DNA from: a virus
Lineage: Duplodnaviria; Heunggongvirae; Uroviricota; Caudoviricetes
Virus record (IMG/VR): IMGVR_UViG_2690316166_000005
DNA length: 6,277 nucleotides
Reading direction: 5' to 3' (one strand)
Both the position numbers and the translations under genes were made by a program. Positions 1-6,277 of this stretch are shown here, in pieces; positions within the stretch are counted from its first letter, which is position 1, and each line of letters begins with the position of its first letter. The notes beneath the pieces were generated by a model. It had not been told where the DNA came from, made no database searches, and saw only the letters and a list, made by a program, of their open reading frames with translations.

Positions 1-117
1 GCCATGATTCGCCATATCACAAAGGCGGAGTTATCCCGCGTGGAGATAGTCGAGCTGCTCAGTCAGGAGTCGGAAAAATTTCACAATATCGGATTGTCTC
101 GCGGGGAGGTGCTTTGA
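1..117 (+). CDS. C-terminal fragment of an upstream phage early-region ORF (hypothetical protein); 5' end lies outside the window
   Basis: Frame 1 is open from position 1 to a TGA at 115-117 (translation ...[38 protein letters not shown]). The stop overlaps the next start as TGATG (TGA 115-117, ATG 117-119), typical of translational coupling in phage operons. Too short to appear in the ORF track; product unknown. Confidence 0.35.
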
Positions 118-416
118 TGTCCTGTTCTCATTCAGTTGTATTACTGAATAACGCCTTAAAAATCGCCGTTATGAAAAATGGCGACTTGTCTCTTATTCAA
201 CTTTGTCTTGATAAAGAAAAACGCGACATCACTGAATCTGTTATCGCGATTTATCAGAATGAATTAAACCTCCTGTCTGATGTGGTCAATTTACTTGTTA
301 AACGCGCTGTATTCCACAAGCAAATTTCCTCAGTGGATGAACTGACAAAATTAACGACAGAACTTGCCAGTTATTGCGCTGATGTATCCAGGAAACTTAA
401 CGATAAAAGGAGCTGA
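117..416 (+). CDS. hypothetical small protein of the P2-like early operon (~99 aa)
   Basis: ORF track 114..416; the ATG at 117 is preferred over the TTG at 114 because a GGGGAGG Shine-Dalgarno sits ~7 nt upstream. Stop TGA 414-416. Same strand and tight spacing with flanking genes. No recognisable motif. Confidence 0.6.
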   Translation: MSCSHSVVLLNNALKIAVMKNGDLSLIQLCLDKEKRDITESVIAIYQNELNLLSDVVNLLVKRAVFHKQISSVDELTKLTTELASYCADVSRKLNDKRS

Positions 417-418
417 TA

Positions 419-643
419 ATGCCGGACAACATAGATTTTATTCAGGAACAACAGGCTGAATTACTGGAGCGCCAGATTAACGCGGCAAGGGTAAAACATT
501 GCGGTGCTTCTGCGCTGGTTTGCGAAGAGTGTGACGCGCCAATTCCTGCTGCCCGTCGTGCGGCTTATCCGTCAGCCACGCGTTGTGTTTCCTGTCAGTC
601 AGTCTTTGAAGCAAAAAACAAACATTACCGGAGAACGGCATGA
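419..643 (+). CDS. TraR/DksA-family C4-type zinc-finger protein (74 aa)
   Basis: Strong SD AAGGAG (407-412) 6 nt before ATG 419. The protein has two CxxC pairs (C-E-E-C ... C-V-S-C) about 20 residues apart near the C-terminus and a helical N-terminus, the pattern of TraR/DksA zinc fingers; such a gene is found just upstream of the replication gene in P2-like phages. Stop TGA 641-643 overlaps the next ATG (ATGA). Confidence 0.85.
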   Translation: MPDNIDFIQEQQAELLERQINAARVKHCGASALVCEECDAPIPAARRAAYPSATRCVSCQSVFEAKNKHYRRTA

Positions 644-915
644 GTATTCGTATTGAAATTGGCGAACGTTATGTCGTTACCAGTGACAGCTTCCAGTTTA
701 TTCTCCACGAGAAAAAGAGAGCGGAAAGCGGTAAAAACGCCGGTCAGGAATGGCTGGCGGTGGTTGGTTATTACCCGAAATTAAGCCAGCTCGTTTCCGG
801 CCTGATGCATCACGATATTCTGACCGGAAGCGCAAAGTCTTTTGCTGATTTAAACGCGCAGGTTGAGCAACTCAGCAAGCGTTGTTCAGAGGCTTTTGGC
901 TCATATGGCCGTTAA
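640..915 (+). CDS. hypothetical small phage protein (91 aa)
   Basis: ATG 640 overlaps the preceding stop (ATGA at 640-643), with a GGAGAA SD-like sequence upstream. Ends TAA 913-915, overlapping the start of the replication gene. No recognisable motif. Confidence 0.6.
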   Translation: MSIRIEIGERYVVTSDSFQFILHEKKRAESGKNAGQEWLAVVGYYPKLSQLVSGLMHHDILTGSAKSFADLNAQVEQLSKRCSEAFGSYGR

Positions 916-3202
916 AGCCTCCGGGCGTTTTGTCCCTCCGTCAGCATTTGCTGCAGGCACCGGTAAGGCGTTTACCGGTGCTTATGCATGGAACGCGCCA
1001 CGCGAGGCTGTCGGGCGCGAAAGACCCCTTACACGTGACGAGATGCGTCAGGTGCAAGGTGTTTTATCCACGATTAACCGCCTGCCTTACTTTTTGCGCT
1101 CGCTGTTTACGTCACGCTATGACTACATCCGGCGCAATAAAAGCCCGGTGCACGGGTTTTATTTCCTCACATCCACTTTTCAGCGTCGTTTATGGCCGCG
1201 CATTGAGCGTGTGAATCAGCGCCATGAAATGAACACCGACGCGTCGATGCTGTTTCTGGCTGAGCGTGACCACTATGCGCGCCTGCCGGGAATGAATGAC
1301 AAGGAGCTGAAAAAGTTTGCCGCCCGTATCTCATCGCAGCTTTTCATGATGTATGAGGAACTCAGCGATGCCTGGGTGGATGCGCATGGCGAAAAAGAAT
1401 CGCTGTTTACGGATGAGGCGCAGGCTCACCTCTATGGTCATGTTGCTGGCGCTGCACGTGCTTTCAATATTTCCCCTCTCTACTGGAAAAAATACCGTAA
1501 AGGACAGATGACCACGAGGCAGGCATATTCTGCCATTGCCCGTCTGTTTAACGATGAGTGGTGGATTAGTCAGCTTAAAGGCCAGCGTATGCGCTGGCAT
1601 GAGGCGTTACTGATTGCTGTCGGGGAGGTCAATAAAGACCGTTCTCCTTATGCCAGTAAACATGCCATTCGTGATGTGCGTGCACGCCGCCAGGCAAATC
1701 TGGAATTTCTTAAATCGTGTGATCTCGAAAACAGGGAAACAGGCGAGCGCATCGACCTTATCAGTAAGGTGATGGGCAGTATTTCTAATCCTGAAATTCG
1801 CCGGATGGAGCTGATGAACACCATTGCCGGTATTGAGCGTTACGCCGCCGCAGAAGGTGATGTGGGGATGTTTATCACGCTGACCGCGCCGTCAAAGTAT
1901 CACCCGACACGTCAGGTTGGAAAAGGCGAAAGTAAAACCGTCCAGCTAAATCACGGCTGGAACGATGAGGCATTTAATCCAAAGGATGCGCAGCGTTATC
2001 TCTGCCGTATCTGGAGCCTGATGCGCACGGCATTCAAGGATAATGATTTACAGGTCTACGGTTTGCGAGTCGTCGAGCCACACCACGACGGAACGCCGCA
2101 CTGGCATATGATGCTTTTTTGTAATCCACGCCAGCGTAACCAGATTATCGAAATCATGCGTCGCTACGCGCTCAAAGAGGATGGCGACGAAAGAGGAGCT
2201 GCGCGAAACCGTTTTCAGGCAAAACATCTTAATCGGGGCGGTGCTGCGGGGTATATCGCGAAATACATCTCAAAAAATATCGACGGCTATGCACTGGATG
2301 GGCAGCTCGATAACGATAGCGGCAGACCGCTGAAAGATACTGCCGCGGCTGTTACCGCATGGGCGTCAACGTGGCGCATTCCGCAATTTAAAACGGTTGG
2401 CCTGCCGACAATGGGGGCTTACCGTGAACTACGCAAATTGCCTCGCGGCGTCAGCATTGCTGATGAGTTTGACGAGCGCGTCGAGGCTGCACGCGCCGCC
2501 GCAGACAGTGGTGATTTTGCGCTGTATATCAGCGCGCAGGGTGGGGCAAATGTCCCGCGCGATTGTCAGACTGTCAGGGTCGCCCGTAGTCCGTCGGATG
2601 AAGTTAACGAGTACGAGGAAGAAGTCGAGAGAGTGGTCGGCATTTACGCGCCGCATCTCGGCGCGCGTCATATTCATATCACCAGAACGACGGACTGGCG
2701 CATTGTTCCGAAAGTGCCGGTCGTTGAGCCTTTGACTTTAAAAAGCGGCATCGCCGCGCCTCGGAGTCCTGTCAATAACTGTGGAAAGCTCACTGGTGGT
2801 GATACTTCGTTACCGGCTCCCACACCTTCTGAGCACGCCGCAGCAGTGCTTAATCTGGTAGATGACGGTGTTATCGAATGGAATGACCCGGAGGTTGTGA
2901 GGGCGCTCAGAGGTGCATTAAAACACGGACTGAGAAGACCAAACCGTCAGCAAAGAAACGGAAGCCCGTTAAAACCGCATGAAATAGCGCCATCGGCCAG
3001 ACTGACCCGGTCGGAACGAATGCAAATTACCCGTATCCGCGTTGACCTTGCTCAGAACGGTATCAGGCCGCAGCGATGGGAGCTTGAGGTGCTGGCGCGT
3101 GGGGCAACCGTAAATTATGACGGGAAAAAATTCACTTACCCGCTCGCTGATGAGTGGTCGGGATTCTCAACAGTATTAGAGTCAAACTCAGTGAAGCGTT
3201 AA
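905..3202 (+). CDS. A: rolling-circle replication initiation endonuclease, P2 gpA-like (HUH superfamily), ~765 aa from ATG 905
   Basis: Long ORF (track 863..3202, which begins at a TTG). HUH motif P-H-W-H-M-M-L-F encoded at 2099-2107. Paired catalytic tyrosines in G-Y-I-A-K-Y-I-S-K (Tyr codons 2252-2254 and 2264-2266), the same YxxKY spacing as phiX174 gpA and P2 gpA. The size (~765 aa) and the N-terminus MAVKASGRF... are consistent with my recollection of P2 gpA. Start set at ATG 905, which overlaps the upstream ORF by 11 nt; TTG 863 is an alternative. Confidence 0.9.
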   Translation: MAVKASGRFVPPSAFAAGTGKAFTGAYAWNAPREAVGRERPLTRDEMRQVQGVLSTINRLPYFLRSLFTSRYDYIRRNKSPVHGFYFLTSTFQRRLWPRIERVNQRHEMNTDASMLFLAERDHYARLPGMNDKELKKFAARISSQLFMMYEELSDAWVDAHGEKESLFTDEAQAHLYGHVAGAARAFNISPLYWKKYRKGQMTTRQAYSAIARLFNDEWWISQLKGQRMRWHEALLIAVGEVNKDRSPYASKHAIRDVRARRQANLEFLKSCDLENRETGERIDLISKVMGSISNPEIRRMELMNTIAGIERYAAAEGDVGMFITLTAPSKYHPTRQVGKGESKTVQLNHGWNDEAFNPKDAQRYLCRIWSLMRTAFKDNDLQVYGLRVVEPHHDGTPHWHMMLFCNPRQRNQIIEIMRRYALKEDGDERGAARNRFQAKHLNRGGAAGYIAKYISKNIDGYALDGQLDNDSGRPLKDTAAAVTAWASTWRIPQFKTVGLPTMGAYRELRKLPRGVSIADEFDERVEAARAAADSGDFALYISAQGGANVPRDCQTVRVARSPSDEVNEYEEEVERVVGIYAPHLGARHIHITRTTDWRIVPKVPVVEPLTLKSGIAAPRSPVNNCGKLTGGDTSLPAPTPSEHAAAVLNLVDDGVIEWNDPEVVRALRGALKHGLRRPNRQQRNGSPLKPHEIAPSARLTRSERMQITRIRVDLAQNGIRPQRWELEVLARGATVNYDGKKFTYPLADEWSGFSTVLESNSVKR
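2755..2785 (+). other. candidate rolling-circle origin (nick site) embedded in the gpA coding sequence
   Basis: In P2 the origin cleaved by gpA lies inside the 3' part of gene A. The segment GCGCCTCGGAGTCCTGTCAATAACTG here resembles my unverified recollection of the P2 ori/nick region and sits about 80% of the way through the gene. Position is inferred, not demonstrated. Confidence 0.25.
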
Positions 3203-3240
3203 CTCAATAAATATGAGTTTATAAGTTAGGCCTCGAGATT

Positions 3241-3285
3241 TTGTAGAAAGGGATGTATACTGAGTATCGTATAGATTTGGAGTGA
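3241..3285 (+). promoter_or_regulatory. putative promoter and ribosome-binding region for the methyltransferase gene
   Basis: AT-rich 83-bp intergenic spacer after the gpA stop. -10-like hexamers TATACT (3256-3261) and TATAGA (3270-3275) and a -35-like TTGTAG (3241-3246) are present, but spacing is non-canonical. SD GGAG (3279-3282) lies 6 nt upstream of ATG 3289. Confidence 0.3.
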
Positions 3286-3288
3286 GTG

Positions 3289-4311
3289 ATGACTGTAAAG
3301 GTGATAGACCTTTTTTGTGGTGCTGGCGGATTAACTCATGGTTTGCAGCTTGCGGGGCTTGATGTCGTTGCAGGCATTGACCTTGAGGGGGAATGTAGGT
3401 TTCCCTATGAAAGAAACAATAAATCTAAGTTTATTGAGCAAGATATCGCTAAAGTAACAAAAGAGGAACTGCTGAGGCTTTATGGTGATGCGTCTGTAAA
3501 AGTATTGGCAGGATGCGCACCTTGCCAACCTTTTTCAAAATATACTCAAGGAAAAGATAAGGCTGATGATAAAAAATGGCCTCTTCTTTATGAGTTCGAA
3601 CGTTTAATTCGCGAAGTATCTCCAGAAATCGTAACAATGGAGAACGTTCCTGATGTAACTAAACATAAAGTTTATAATGATTTTTATAATTCATTGTTAA
3701 AGTTGGGCTATTATGTTTGGGCGTCTAAGATTGATTGTGTCGAATATGGAATCCCACAAAACCGTTCCCGTCATGTATTGTTGGCCTCAAAATTGGGGGC
3801 GATTGAGTTAGTAAAACGTGACGATGTTATTTTGAAAACAGTTAGAGATGCAATAGGAAATCTTCCTCCATTAGAAGATGGCCAAACAGATCCAAATGAT
3901 ATATTACATAGAGCCAGTAAATTAAATCCGATTAATAAAAAAAGAATTATACACTCTGTTCCTGGTGGTACATGGAAGGACTGGCCGAAAGAGTTGGTTG
4001 CCGCTTGTCATATGAAATCCAGCGGTAAAGGGTATGCTAGTGTATATGGGCGCATGTCTTGGGATAAGCCAAGTCCAACAATTACAACTCTTTGTTATGG
4101 TTTCGGGAATGGGCGTTTTGGACATCCAGAACAGCATAGAGCGATTTCTCTTAGAGAGGCTGCTTTATTGCAAACTTTCCCGATGGATTATATTTTTGTA
4201 GAAGACAAAAACAAGTTTGTTATAAGAAGTATTGGGAAAATGATAGGTAATGCTGTTCCTGTGGAACTAGGAAAAGCAATTGGGCAATCAATCAAGAACC
4301 ATTTAGAATGA
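3289..4311 (+). CDS. DNA (cytosine-5)-methyltransferase (C5-MTase), ~340 aa
   Basis: Canonical C5-MTase motifs in the canonical order: motif I F-C-G-A-G-G (3313-3330, AdoMet binding); motif IV G-C-A-P-C-Q-P-F-S with the catalytic Cys in PCQ (3520-3528); motif VI E-N-V (3640-3648); motif VIII Q-N-R-S-R; C-terminal motif X G-N-A-V-P-V. ATG 3289 is preferred over GTG 3286 on SD spacing. Stop TGA 4309-4311. Confidence 0.9.
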   Translation: MTVKVIDLFCGAGGLTHGLQLAGLDVVAGIDLEGECRFPYERNNKSKFIEQDIAKVTKEELLRLYGDASVKVLAGCAPCQPFSKYTQGKDKADDKKWPLLYEFERLIREVSPEIVTMENVPDVTKHKVYNDFYNSLLKLGYYVWASKIDCVEYGIPQNRSRHVLLASKLGAIELVKRDDVILKTVRDAIGNLPPLEDGQTDPNDILHRASKLNPINKKRIIHSVPGGTWKDWPKELVAACHMKSSGKGYASVYGRMSWDKPSPTITTLCYGFGNGRFGHPEQHRAISLREAALLQTFPMDYIFVEDKNKFVIRSIGKMIGNAVPVELGKAIGQSIKNHLE

Positions 4312-4312
4312 T

Positions 4313-4340
4313 AAAATGGCCTGCTTTACAGGCCTTATAA
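4313..4340. terminator. putative bidirectional intrinsic terminator between convergent genes
   Basis: Perfect inverted repeat GGCCTG (4318-4323) / CAGGCC (4329-4334) with a 5-nt loop, flanked by an A-run on one side and T-rich sequence on the other. It lies exactly between the MTase stop (4311) and the HEPN gene stop (4341). The stem is short (6 bp), so strength is uncertain. Confidence 0.45.
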
Positions 4341-5021
4341 CTATTGTTCTAAATATTCATTATTATTTATATAGTGCTCTATATTATTCACGATAGCATC
4401 AAGATAGGCGATTACTTCTAATGAAATATTCTCTAAGTCCTGATATGAAACATTTTTTCCAATCTCAGCAAATGATACATTGCCATGAGATAAATCATTA
4501 CGATGTTGTTTAACAGTGGCTAATTTTTCACCATGTTTAGTGTGAGTGTAATCGGAATGTGTAGAAAAACCATATATTTTCGATTTTTCTTTGATTTCCT
4601 CTCTATCAATATTTCCTGAGAATATTTTCTTTTTGTTGAACGTGCCATAAGATATACCGCAAGATATACCTTTGGTAAGGTGATTAACTAAACTTTCAAC
4701 ATTTACAGATTCATTTTTTAATCTTTTTAATATTTCTGACCTGAGATTTTTCCTGAGTTTGTCAAATTCTACGTTTCTATCATAAATAGTCTCATGAATA
4801 AGGCAGATAGCTTCTCTCATTGTTGATTCAATGAGGTTATATAACAGTATATATACTGCTCCCTTTAGAGTTTTTCGTGATTGAGCAGTAATGGAGAACT
4901 TATGTTCTTTATCATCAGCTGATATCAGTTCTGCACCGGCATACTCAATAAATTTCAAAAGATCCAAATAGGCCAAGATCTCTCCTGACCTTTCGTCAAA
5001 ATCCTCACGAAAACGATCCAT
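4341..5021 (-). CDS. HEPN-domain protein (MAE_28990/MAE_18760-like predicted RNase), 226 aa
   Basis: ATG at 5019-5021 (- strand) with an AGAGGA SD 5 nt upstream, located inside the 3' end of the upstream gene. Only 1 nt separates the upstream TAA (5023-5025) from this ATG. Contains an Rx4H HEPN-type motif, H-R-N-D-L-S-H-G (Arg codon 4500-4502, His codon 4485-4487), near the C-terminal third of a small, predicted all-helical protein. Stop TAG 4341-4343. Confidence 0.75.
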   Translation of the reverse strand: MDRFREDFDERSGEILAYLDLLKFIEYAGAELISADDKEHKFSITAQSRKTLKGAVYILLYNLIESTMREAICLIHETIYDRNVEFDKLRKNLRSEILKRLKNESVNVESLVNHLTKGISCGISYGTFNKKKIFSGNIDREEIKEKSKIYGFSTHSDYTHTKHGEKLATVKQHRNDLSHGNVSFAEIGKNVSYQDLENISLEVIAYLDAIVNNIEHYINNNEYLEQ

Positions 5022-5022
5022 G

Positions 5023-6165
5023 TTAATCCTCTAATAATTTATCCCGAACATATTCAATTCGTTCAATTACCTTCACGCGACTATTAGCTCCGTCGGAAGT
5101 GGTCAATCGTTTGAATTCTTCTGAGCTTAGCCAATCTAAGTTCTTGGGAACAAGGTCAGGGACTTCACGTAATGCAAGTGCTGCGCCAACAGCGAGAGAT
5201 TCGAATCTAACTCGAGGTGTAGATTTTGCAGTAATAGTTTTCTTGAATCCTGCTGGGAAATAGTTTTCAACAAAAGATAGAACATTAGCAAACTCTTGTT
5301 TCATTGAGTTTTGTTTAGTTTCGTCTATATCTCGATTTTCTGACATATAGTCATTTAGAAAATCCCGTACGGAATGATCAAAGTTCTTGTACTTATCTAC
5401 GTAGGCAAAGAATCTTAATGTAAATTCTAACCGTTCATCTCGTTTTTCTTTAGTCTGAGATAAAGGTGCTAATTCTTTAAATTTAGGTATTGTTGAGCAT
5501 GGCTTAATAACCTGTGTATATAAATTTGTTGAACCAAGTTCTGATCCTTTACGGACTTCCATATCTTTCAATATATCGCTGCCAGAGTTAATACGCTCAA
5601 AAAGATCTCTACGGGTTTCTTCATTGCATTTAGAACTCAATTCTATAACGCGGACAGGAATTCTCATGAAACGACGTTGACGTGATAATGGTAAATCTTG
5701 GAATTTGAAACCATTAAGGACGTCTAAAGATTTCAGGTCTTGTAAAACTAATTCATTTTGGATAAAAGCGTGTATAGTCCTAACTCGTTGTGAGCCATCA
5801 ACAATCTCAATTCGCCCATCTAAATCGGGATCTTCGGAGAGAACATCTGCTATAAATATATATGGTATAGGAAAACCCAAAATCAAAGACTCTATCAATT
5901 TTGATTGTCTTTTTTCACTCCAAACAAAATCCCTTTGATAATCAGGAACAAAGAGTTCGTTAGTATCATCCTCTAATCCGTTATGATACTTATTAACTAA
6001 TAACTCAACGGTAAATTCTTTGGTCTCAAAATCCACATCCTTTTGCTCAGCACGAATTTGCTCTTCAGCGTTTTGCTTTATCACCTCTAGCTGAGCAAGC
6101 AACTCTGCTCTTTTCTTGGCATTATCTTCATTTTCTAGTTGAGATTTTAAATCAATAATGTCCAT
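5023..6165 (-). CDS. DUF262 (ParB-like / GmrS-like N-terminal domain) protein, ~380 aa
   Basis: ORF track 5023..6183, beginning at a TTG. ATG at 6163-6165 (- strand) is preferred because an AAGGGAA SD lies 7 nt upstream. Hallmark DUF262 motifs: V-P-D-Y-Q-R-D-F-V-W (DYQR codons 5932-5943) and I-V-D-G-S-Q-R (DGSQR codons 5785-5799, the DGQQR-type motif). No HNH/DUF1524-like motif was recognised in the C-terminal half. Confidence 0.8.
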   Translation of the reverse strand: MDIIDLKSQLENEDNAKKRAELLAQLEVIKQNAEEQIRAEQKDVDFETKEFTVELLVNKYHNGLEDDTNELFVPDYQRDFVWSEKRQSKLIESLILGFPIPYIFIADVLSEDPDLDGRIEIVDGSQRVRTIHAFIQNELVLQDLKSLDVLNGFKFQDLPLSRQRRFMRIPVRVIELSSKCNEETRRDLFERINSGSDILKDMEVRKGSELGSTNLYTQVIKPCSTIPKFKELAPLSQTKEKRDERLEFTLRFFAYVDKYKNFDHSVRDFLNDYMSENRDIDETKQNSMKQEFANVLSFVENYFPAGFKKTITAKSTPRVRFESLAVGAALALREVPDLVPKNLDWLSSEEFKRLTTSDGANSRVKVIERIEYVRDKLLED

Positions 6166-6277
6166 GTCTAGTTCCCTTAACAAGTGTTAAAAATTGAAGC
6201 GGATAGCATACCGCATAGATCATGAAAAATGCCATCATGTGCATGGTGCGTATTCCGCTCTATTCGATCACGGATTG

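Follow-up and report, generated by a model that had tools for sequence, protein, structure and literature searches.

The validated systems nearest to the locus described here are PD-T4-2 and PD-lambda-5. PD-T4-2 is a two-gene operon from Escherichia coli that encodes a DUF262 protein and a small HEPN protein (RiboL-PSP / MAE_28990 clan) and protects against T4 (PMC9519451). PD-lambda-5 combines a ParB-HEPN fusion with a methylase and was described as a compacted restriction-modification plus abortive-infection (RM+Abi) system; it needed an mrr-deleted host, so its methylase is active (PMC9519451). In our study, we analyzed a 6,277-nucleotide (nt) stretch of a virus of the Caudoviricetes (IMG/VR record IMGVR_UViG_2690316166_000005), referred to below in its whole length as the window, in which genes for a C5 cytosine DNA methyltransferase, a HEPN protein and a DUF262 protein lie together as cargo of a P2-like prophage. 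Our comparisons indicated that this trio behaves as one unit and not as three unrelated genes, and we consider it reasonably probable, judging from the sequences of the genes and their relatives, that it forms a methylation-gated defense system resembling restriction-modification (R-M).

The resemblance to PD-T4-2 lay in the pairing of DUF262 with HEPN and in the match of the window's DUF262 protein to the PADLOC model PD-T4-2_A (E = 2.5e-35), which was second to its match to NsnA of the Menshen system (E = 1.7e-54, residues 17-380 on model positions 25-376 of 385). The two systems differed in size, the two genes of PD-T4-2 together spanning ~1.5 kb and thus less than those of the window, and in the methylase, which PD-T4-2 lacks, whereas a C5 methylase was linked to the pair in the window and in 80-89% of related loci. 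The window's HEPN protein matched no PADLOC model at E <= 0.01, PD-T4-2_B included. This comparison was based on PADLOC models and published HHpred tables. With PD-lambda-5, the window shares a prophage-borne combination of ParB-like and HEPN-like domains with a DNA methylase. However, the ParB and HEPN domains of PD-lambda-5 are fused and its methylase is Dam-like (MethyltransfD12, N6-adenine), whereas the proteins of the window are separate and the methylase is a C5 enzyme (PF00145). None of the PADLOC models for PD-lambda-5 was matched by the window proteins.

Menshen (NsnABC; Millman 2022; PMC12065111) has in common with the window the NsnA-like DUF262 protein, with its architecture of ParB-DUF262 and a C-terminal helical (ParBDB-type) region, and some Menshen loci carry solitary methylases; NsnA itself was proposed to be a DNA sensor. 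Unlike Menshen, the cassette carried neither the NsnB ABC ATPase nor the NsnC effector, and the HEPN gene was the sole gene downstream of the DUF262 gene. In GmrSD, BrxU and SspE, DUF262 domains act as sensors of DNA modification coupled to nucleoside triphosphatase (NTPase) activity (PMC10952713, PMC12137116). These Type IV enzymes share with the window protein an N-terminal DUF262 domain with the canonical motifs QR, DG(Q/S)QR and FxxxN (as defined in PMC12137116), and they were among its top structural matches, at non-significant values. They differ from it in that the window protein lacked a DUF1524 His-Me nuclease domain (no Pfam match was found beyond PF03235) and in that its putative effector is a separate HEPN protein with a methylase linked, whereas Type IV enzymes attack modified DNA. 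The likeness to an R-M system would consist in a C5 methylase, with all motifs intact, linked to a restriction component. Overall, the system in the window lacked some of the defining features of each of PD-T4-2, PD-lambda-5, Menshen and GmrSD.

As a locus, the trio was already known. It is listed in the accessible part of the supplementary table of P2 loci by Rousset et al. 2022 (PMC9122126), including the methylase WP_001697730, the RefSeq accession of the methylase in the E. coli copy; E. coli copies were 98% identical to the window. In that part of the table, WP_001697730 and WP_000373633 each occur at least seven times, WP_000351260 at least six times, and the GN04592-type allele WP_021539395 at least three times. 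The locus listed there agrees with ours in its hotspot position, its three domains and the methylase accession, and it differs in that the window copy adds an insertion of the insertion sequence (IS) family IS21 on the cos side. The operon type of the MAE_28990 HEPN proteins had been recorded by Anantharaman et al. 2013 (PMC3710099), who proposed that HEPN proteins in R-M operons serve as a second, RNA-directed RNase arm. That proposal was a computational note, in which no system, specificity or mechanism was defined.

The three genes and their linkage

The methylase gene (3289..4311, plus strand) encodes a C5 cytosine DNA methyltransferase of 340 amino acids (aa), assigned by PF00145 (E = 3e-58) and TIGR00675 (130 bits, cut-off 100.65). 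Its PADLOC matches, DrmMII (1e-90), MTase_II (7e-89) and also DruM, are to generic models. The open reading frame (ORF) call opens at GTG 3286; a start at ATG 3289 was backed by the RefSeq copy and by all homologues, with GGAG located 6 nt upstream. Motifs I (FCGAGG, residues 9-14), IV (P78-C79-Q80), VI (E118-N-V120) and VIII (Q157-N-R-S-R161) were all intact. When conservation was measured over 50 orthologues from many phyla, the target-recognition region (residues ~200-300, window ~3886-4188) proved to be the best conserved part of the protein, with a mean column conservation of 0.73-0.85 versus 0.5-0.7 elsewhere. This is unusual among C5 methylases, and as it is the target-recognition region that is best conserved, it suggests that the orthologues share one fixed target specificity. 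Among solved structures, the best matches were M.HaeIII, DNMT1 and M.HhaI, through common catalytic motifs only, and the target motif could not be inferred from these best solved relatives.

The DUF262 gene (5023..6165, minus strand) encodes a GmrSD_N, ParB/Srx-like protein of 380 aa with NsnA-like architecture (PF03235, E = 8e-26). Its start at ATG 6165 was backed by the RefSeq copy and homologues, the ORF call opening at TTG 6183. The motifs Q77-R78, D123-G-S-Q-R127 and F189-x3-N193 were invariant in the protein alignment (A1), with the second Q replaced by S in DG(S)QR. Among 8,000 candidates scored, 3,674 relatives were found at E <= 1e-5, and comparison with PDB sequences returned marginal DUF262 matches only (E ~0.006). 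An AlphaFold2 model from a 13-sequence alignment reached a predicted local distance difference test score (pLDDT) of 75, with low confidence at the motif loops, and its C-terminal half was predicted to be all-helical; the predicted structure agrees with the family assignment and adds no evidence to it.

The HEPN gene (4341..5021, minus strand) encodes a protein of 226 aa of the MAE_28990 family, which matched PF18737 over its full length (E = 6e-29; 102.2 bits, gathering cut-off 26.8) and also PF18735 (E = 8e-9). In its motif R174-x4-H179 (RNDLSHG), the R, N, H and G were at least 95% conserved in 61 sequences, and no match was found among PDB sequences. The family comprised 1,170 representatives at 50% clustering; no HEPN-DUF262 fusion of the Rosetta-stone kind was present among the best 150 of them. 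The stop codon of the DUF262 gene and the start codon of the HEPN gene are separated by 1 nt, and because of this spacing, the two genes are probably translationally coupled. In all three proteins of the trio, the catalytic motifs are intact.

The linkage of the trio was determined in 80 genome loci (GTDB representatives) and 80 IMG/VR loci encoding DUF262 relatives, whose ORFs were searched with the three window proteins. The loci were dereplicated, and at least 1.3 kb was required on both sides, giving 54 genome loci and 56 viral loci. The HEPN gene directly followed the DUF262 gene in 53 of the genome loci and 54 of the viral loci, and a C5 methylase was directly adjacent in 43 genome loci (with one more within 3 kb) and 50 viral loci. 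Across the ~110 distinct loci combined, HEPN followed DUF262 in 107 and the methylase was adjacent in 93. Genome loci came from Gammaproteobacteria, Cyanobacteria, Planctomycetota, Acidobacteriota, Bacteroidota, Verrucomicrobiota and others, demonstrating that the linkage of the three genes is conserved across phyla and mobile elements.

Two layouts of the methylase (M), DUF262 (D) and HEPN (H) genes recurred, namely the convergent D>H<M found in the window and M>D>H, in which the reading frames abut, implying co-transcription. Most neighboring methylases were orthologous to that of the window (47-86% identity) and the remainder were other PF00145 enzymes. No N6 or N4 methylase occupied the dedicated methylase position in the sampled loci, the single N6_N4 enzyme belonging to an adjoining BamHI-like R-M system. 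The pairwise identities of the proteins co-varied (D-H, r = 0.89; D-M, r = 0.79; H-M, r = 0.80; Mantel p = 0.001 each), and the class of the methylase was predicted by the nearest DUF262 neighbor for 83 of 84 orthologous methylases, 8 of 11 other C5 methylases and 13 of 15 loci with none. The locus with the N6_N4 enzyme (L057) has the DUF262-HEPN pair beside a BamHI-like restriction enzyme and its methylase, a separate R-M system, and another locus (L078) has two neighboring ORFs that resemble those of L057 by size and N-terminal sequence.

The same cassette was found in lambdoid prophages of Klebsiella pneumoniae (L086-L090, positions 6001-8886), with 85% aa identity for DUF262, where it is flanked by replication genes (O/P or DnaC-like) and by the NinG/RusA/antiterminator Q region. 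Its limits were determined by comparing three backbones, an E. coli P2-like prophage, a Klebsiella lambdoid prophage and a Tatumella chromosome, and blastn against L086, L096 and L003 showed 76-77% identity from 3226/3232 to 6165/6239. Homology across these backbones indicated a mobile unit at 3226..6239 that includes both regulatory flanks, and the cassette, flanks included, thus moves as one unit among chromosomes, P2-like prophages and the lambdoid prophages of Klebsiella. In Peduovirus P24B2 (NC_049387.1, 3579-6480), the P2 hotspot held a diverged allele of the trio, with identities to the window of 45% for DUF262, 30% for HEPN and 72-76% for the methylase.

Proposed mechanism and alternative readings

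The linkage pattern, the presence of C5 enzymes only and the operonic M>D>H layout suggested that the methylase contributes to the function of the system. In the mechanism that we propose, the methylase would mark the DNA of host and prophage at one fixed cytosine motif, and the DUF262 protein would scan DNA and be held off by the 5-methylcytosine (5mC) mark. On unmethylated incoming DNA, DUF262 would bind or hydrolyze nucleoside triphosphate and activate its HEPN partner, which, by analogy with other HEPN proteins, would be a metal-independent RNase. The infection would then be aborted or the phage transcripts destroyed, so that the system would follow R-M logic with an unconventional restriction half. 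What we infer is that the system acts against phages, that methylation is sensed with this polarity, that RNA is the target, and that DUF262 and HEPN are in physical contact. A similar polarity was considered in the Menshen paper, according to which non-modified DNA might be the target of ParB-DUF262 proteins associated with solitary methylases (PMC12065111). A more far-reaching claim, which we put forward only tentatively, is that the trio represents a distinct and widespread R-M class. A ParB-like NTPase sensor would in that case stay silent as long as a fixed motif bears 5mC, and foreign DNA lacking the mark would set off a HEPN RNase, leading to abortive infection with no DNA cleavage.

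Several observations weigh against a methylation-gated system. No adjacent methylase was present in 10 of the 54 genome loci and 5 of the 56 viral loci (~10-20% of pairs), and a cyanobacterial clade of eight loci carried the pair without an adjacent methylase (e.g., Microcoleus-type), several of them by clpB. PD-T4-2 was effective in K-12 without a methylase (PMC9519451), and together with the methylase-free pairs, this indicated that the pair is not always dependent on a linked methylase, or lethal without one. In the P24B2 allele, the methylase gene lies in two frames, split by a frameshift at a G8 run (4252-4259). The frameshift may be a sequencing error; if it is instead a real inactivation, possibly through phase variation, the DUF262-HEPN pair is tolerated without the methylase. 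As HEPN domains are typically metal-independent RNases, restriction of DNA would not be expected, and the ParB-like domain could instead be the nuclease. The co-varying identities can stem from simple co-inheritance. When the DUF262 model was compared with the PDB by Foldseek, SspE, the ParB N-domain and BrxU ranked on top, all non-significant (E > 0.08). All characterized DUF262 enzymes (GmrSD, BrxU, SspE and GrwAB) are activated by modification and not blocked by it (PMC10952713, PMC12137116), and the polarity proposed here is therefore without precedent among them. In the accessible part of the table by Rousset et al., the locus is catalogued only, outside their tested systems, and in the literature searched, we found no functional study of a methylase-DUF262-HEPN trio.

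The alternative that best survives these comparisons, and one that we regard as unlikely, is that the cargo consists of two independent items, an orphan C5 methylase and a separate modification-dependent, Type IV-like or abortive-infection DUF262-HEPN pair of the PD-T4-2 kind, for which the methylase is not needed. The orphan methylase would then shield the DNA of phage or host against other restriction systems, or have an epigenetic role. Such an arrangement would fit the organization of the methylase gene and the operon, which form convergent transcription units of their own, divided by a probable terminator, as well as the existence of methylase-less pairs. It would also fit the DUF262 enzymes characterized to date, which sense modified DNA, and PD-T4-2, which acts on T4, a phage with modified cytosines. 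In the accessible part of their table, Rousset et al. tagged a Vibrio locus of DUF262, DUF262/DndB and HEPN_MAE_28990 as 'Type-IV restriction'. However, chance co-travel fails to explain why 43 of 54 genome loci and 50 of 56 viral loci, across phyla, have a C5 methylase next to the pair, nor would it account for the operonic M>D>H layout, the restriction to C5 enzymes, the co-variation, or a methylase class that tracks the DUF262 phylogeny. Moreover, a sensor activated by 5mC and located next to a 5mC methylase would attack its own genome.

The trio could also be mainly a selfish addiction module, acting, like many Type II R-M systems, through post-segregational killing that stabilizes the prophage or cassette, with little or no role in defense. 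Its R-M-like gene content, the movement of the cassette between prophages and chromosomes, and the frequency of HEPN proteins as toxins of toxin-antitoxin systems are in line with this. We consider it improbable, as the tested cargo of the hotspot is overwhelmingly anti-phage and the closest tested relatives, PD-T4-2 and PD-lambda-5, protect against phages. Addiction and defense are, in addition, not mutually exclusive, and a methylation-gated defense system remained our preferred reading of the trio.

The P2 hotspot, its junctions and the flanks of the cassette

The left part of the window (1-3202) codes for P2 orf81, orf82, orf83 and gene A (Pfam: DUF5405, zf-dskA_traR, DUF5405 and Phage_GPA), and positions 1-3182 were 96.6% identical to P2 at the nt level. 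Gene A (905..3202, plus strand), encoding the replication endonuclease (PF05840 Phage_GPA, E = 2e-123), forms the conserved left flank. A preliminary description had interpreted the sequence to the right of gene A as acquired cargo at the P2 tin/old hotspot, and the foreign composition, the stop in homology, the rarity of the cargo and its placement in relatives all supported this. In P2, orf91, tin and old occupy this position, followed by cosR, and the status of the site as a hotspot is documented in the literature (Rousset 2022, PMC9122126; Vassallo 2022, PMC9519451). Alignment of the flanks placed P2 core on the left, and the right flank (cos / portal Q) was visible in the cargo-bearing relatives L001, L002 and L091. 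In the E. coli copies, the cargo had the replication endonuclease gene of a P2-like prophage on one side and its portal gene Q on the other. The IMG/VR contig L091 was 100% identical to window 1-6246, and its homology to P2 restarts 75 nt beyond the IS junction of the window, where it covers the terminal 48 nt of P2, which include cosR.

The cargo was present in 9 of 5,426 complete E. coli genomes, 3203-6246 being 98% identical in eight chromosomes and 89% in the ninth. The gene A segment occurred in 1,712 of the same 5,426 genomes, at 2,026 places. None of the INPHARED phage records covered the insert, and 86 records matched 1-3185 only. The insert is therefore variable and not conserved core, as had been proposed. 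Horizontal acquisition best explains window 3183-6246 as a ~3-kb defense cassette in the P2 tin/old hotspot, between gene A and cos; its location, foreign composition and rarity were observed directly.

The shift in guanine-plus-cytosine (GC) content that had been claimed at ~3203 was real, with a GC of 0.512 for 1-3202 and 0.360 for 3203-6246. Sliding 300-nt GC ranged from 0.47 to 0.59 between ~450 and ~3150 and from 0.29 to 0.41 between ~3200 and the end, a large drop sited where the preliminary description had put it. The best single maximum-likelihood change point fell after base 3162, with a log-likelihood gain of 74.7; when 50-nt blocks were shuffled 300 times, the gain averaged 5.4 and never exceeded 19.3. 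The cargo genes had a GC at third codon positions (GC3) of 0.289 (methylase), 0.256 (HEPN) and 0.270 (DUF262), as against 0.542 for gene A, and the AT-richness was thus strongest in the minus-strand genes, in agreement with the earlier claim. The orf81-like P2 core gene (114-416) is itself AT-rich (GC 0.376), with a smaller dip at 150-450, so low GC alone is no marker of cargo in this phage. That the shift is intrinsic to the P2 genome or a chance fluctuation can claim this AT-rich core stretch in its favor, but it is already refuted and of negligible probability, as the change-point gain far exceeds the shuffle maximum, homology to all P2-like phages halts at the break, the cargo is found in 9 E. 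coli genomes and the flank in 1,712, and the same cassette occurs in unrelated backbones.

The break had also been described as coinciding exactly with the gene A stop codon (3202), which did not hold. Homology to P2 and 85 other P2-like phage records stops at ~3157-3185, and that to P2 itself (96-98% at the nt level) at 3182, ~20 nt inside gene A. Consequently, the last ~7 codons of gene A (3183-3202) are non-P2-like and replaced, gpA ending in STVLESNSVKR in the window and in STVMEWT in P2, which places the recombination junction within the 3' end of the gene. The hotspot is organized differently in the P2-like prophage of E. coli GN04592 (L002), where a PAPS-reductase-family gene (1950-2957) lies between orf83 and gene A, and a DUF3850 (orf91-like) gene and a small ORF (5245-5909) are kept between gene A and the cassette. 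The retention of the orf91-like gene indicated that the cassette is able to join existing hotspot genes and does not always replace all of them.

Within the cassette, a promoter-like site (TCGAGA-17-TATACT; 3233..3261, plus strand) precedes the methylase gene. It is a match to the consensus only, and it lies inside the part conserved across backbones; it may give the methylase gene a promoter of its own. A sequence scan revealed a GC-rich hairpin, GGCCTGTAAAGCAGGCC, at 4318..4334 between the convergent methylase and HEPN genes, which is probably a bidirectional terminator. The upstream region of the DUF262-HEPN operon (6166..6246, minus strand) is conserved with the E. coli relatives to 6246, and neither a scan nor inspection by eye yielded a convincing sigma-70 match for an operon promoter in it. 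Rfam, tRNA and repeat scans of the window returned nothing relevant.

The window closes with 31 nt (6247..6277) from the istB-side terminus of an ISSso4-like element of the IS21 family. The element lies in the stretch that separates the operon from cos, and its insertion site is 81 nt upstream of the ATG of the DUF262 gene. The last 34-37 nt of the window had 100% matches at many unrelated E. coli sites, and at one locus (L085), the match adjoins istB/istA of an IS21-family element that interrupts rhsC. The 5' end of a group II intron, considered on account of a GTGCG string, was ruled out as the identity of these 31 nt, since the matching sites are the istB-side ends of IS21-family elements. 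The insertion was absent from the otherwise identical L091 and from the E. coli relatives. Because the element interrupts the sequence at 6246/6247, the right-hand junction of the cargo lies outside the window, and the insertion may cut off or replace the promoter of the DUF262-HEPN operon.

Significance for P2-like prophages and the DUF262 family

The window represents a textbook case of a P2-like prophage with defense cargo swapped in at the tin/old hotspot, and it shows that such a swap rewrites the C-terminal tail of gpA, an essential protein. The trio carried by this cargo forms a conserved unit whose range extends from the prophages of enterobacteria to cyanobacteria and planctomycetes. 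In E. coli, the cassette takes up only 3 kb, probably carries promoters of its own and has a tractable host, allowing for direct testing. If the methylase does gate the DUF262-HEPN pair, the family would link classical R-M systems, Type IV (DUF262) enzymes and HEPN abortive-infection toxins. DUF262 sensors would then work in either polarity, and the trio would provide the first demonstrated case of one that responds to a missing modification.

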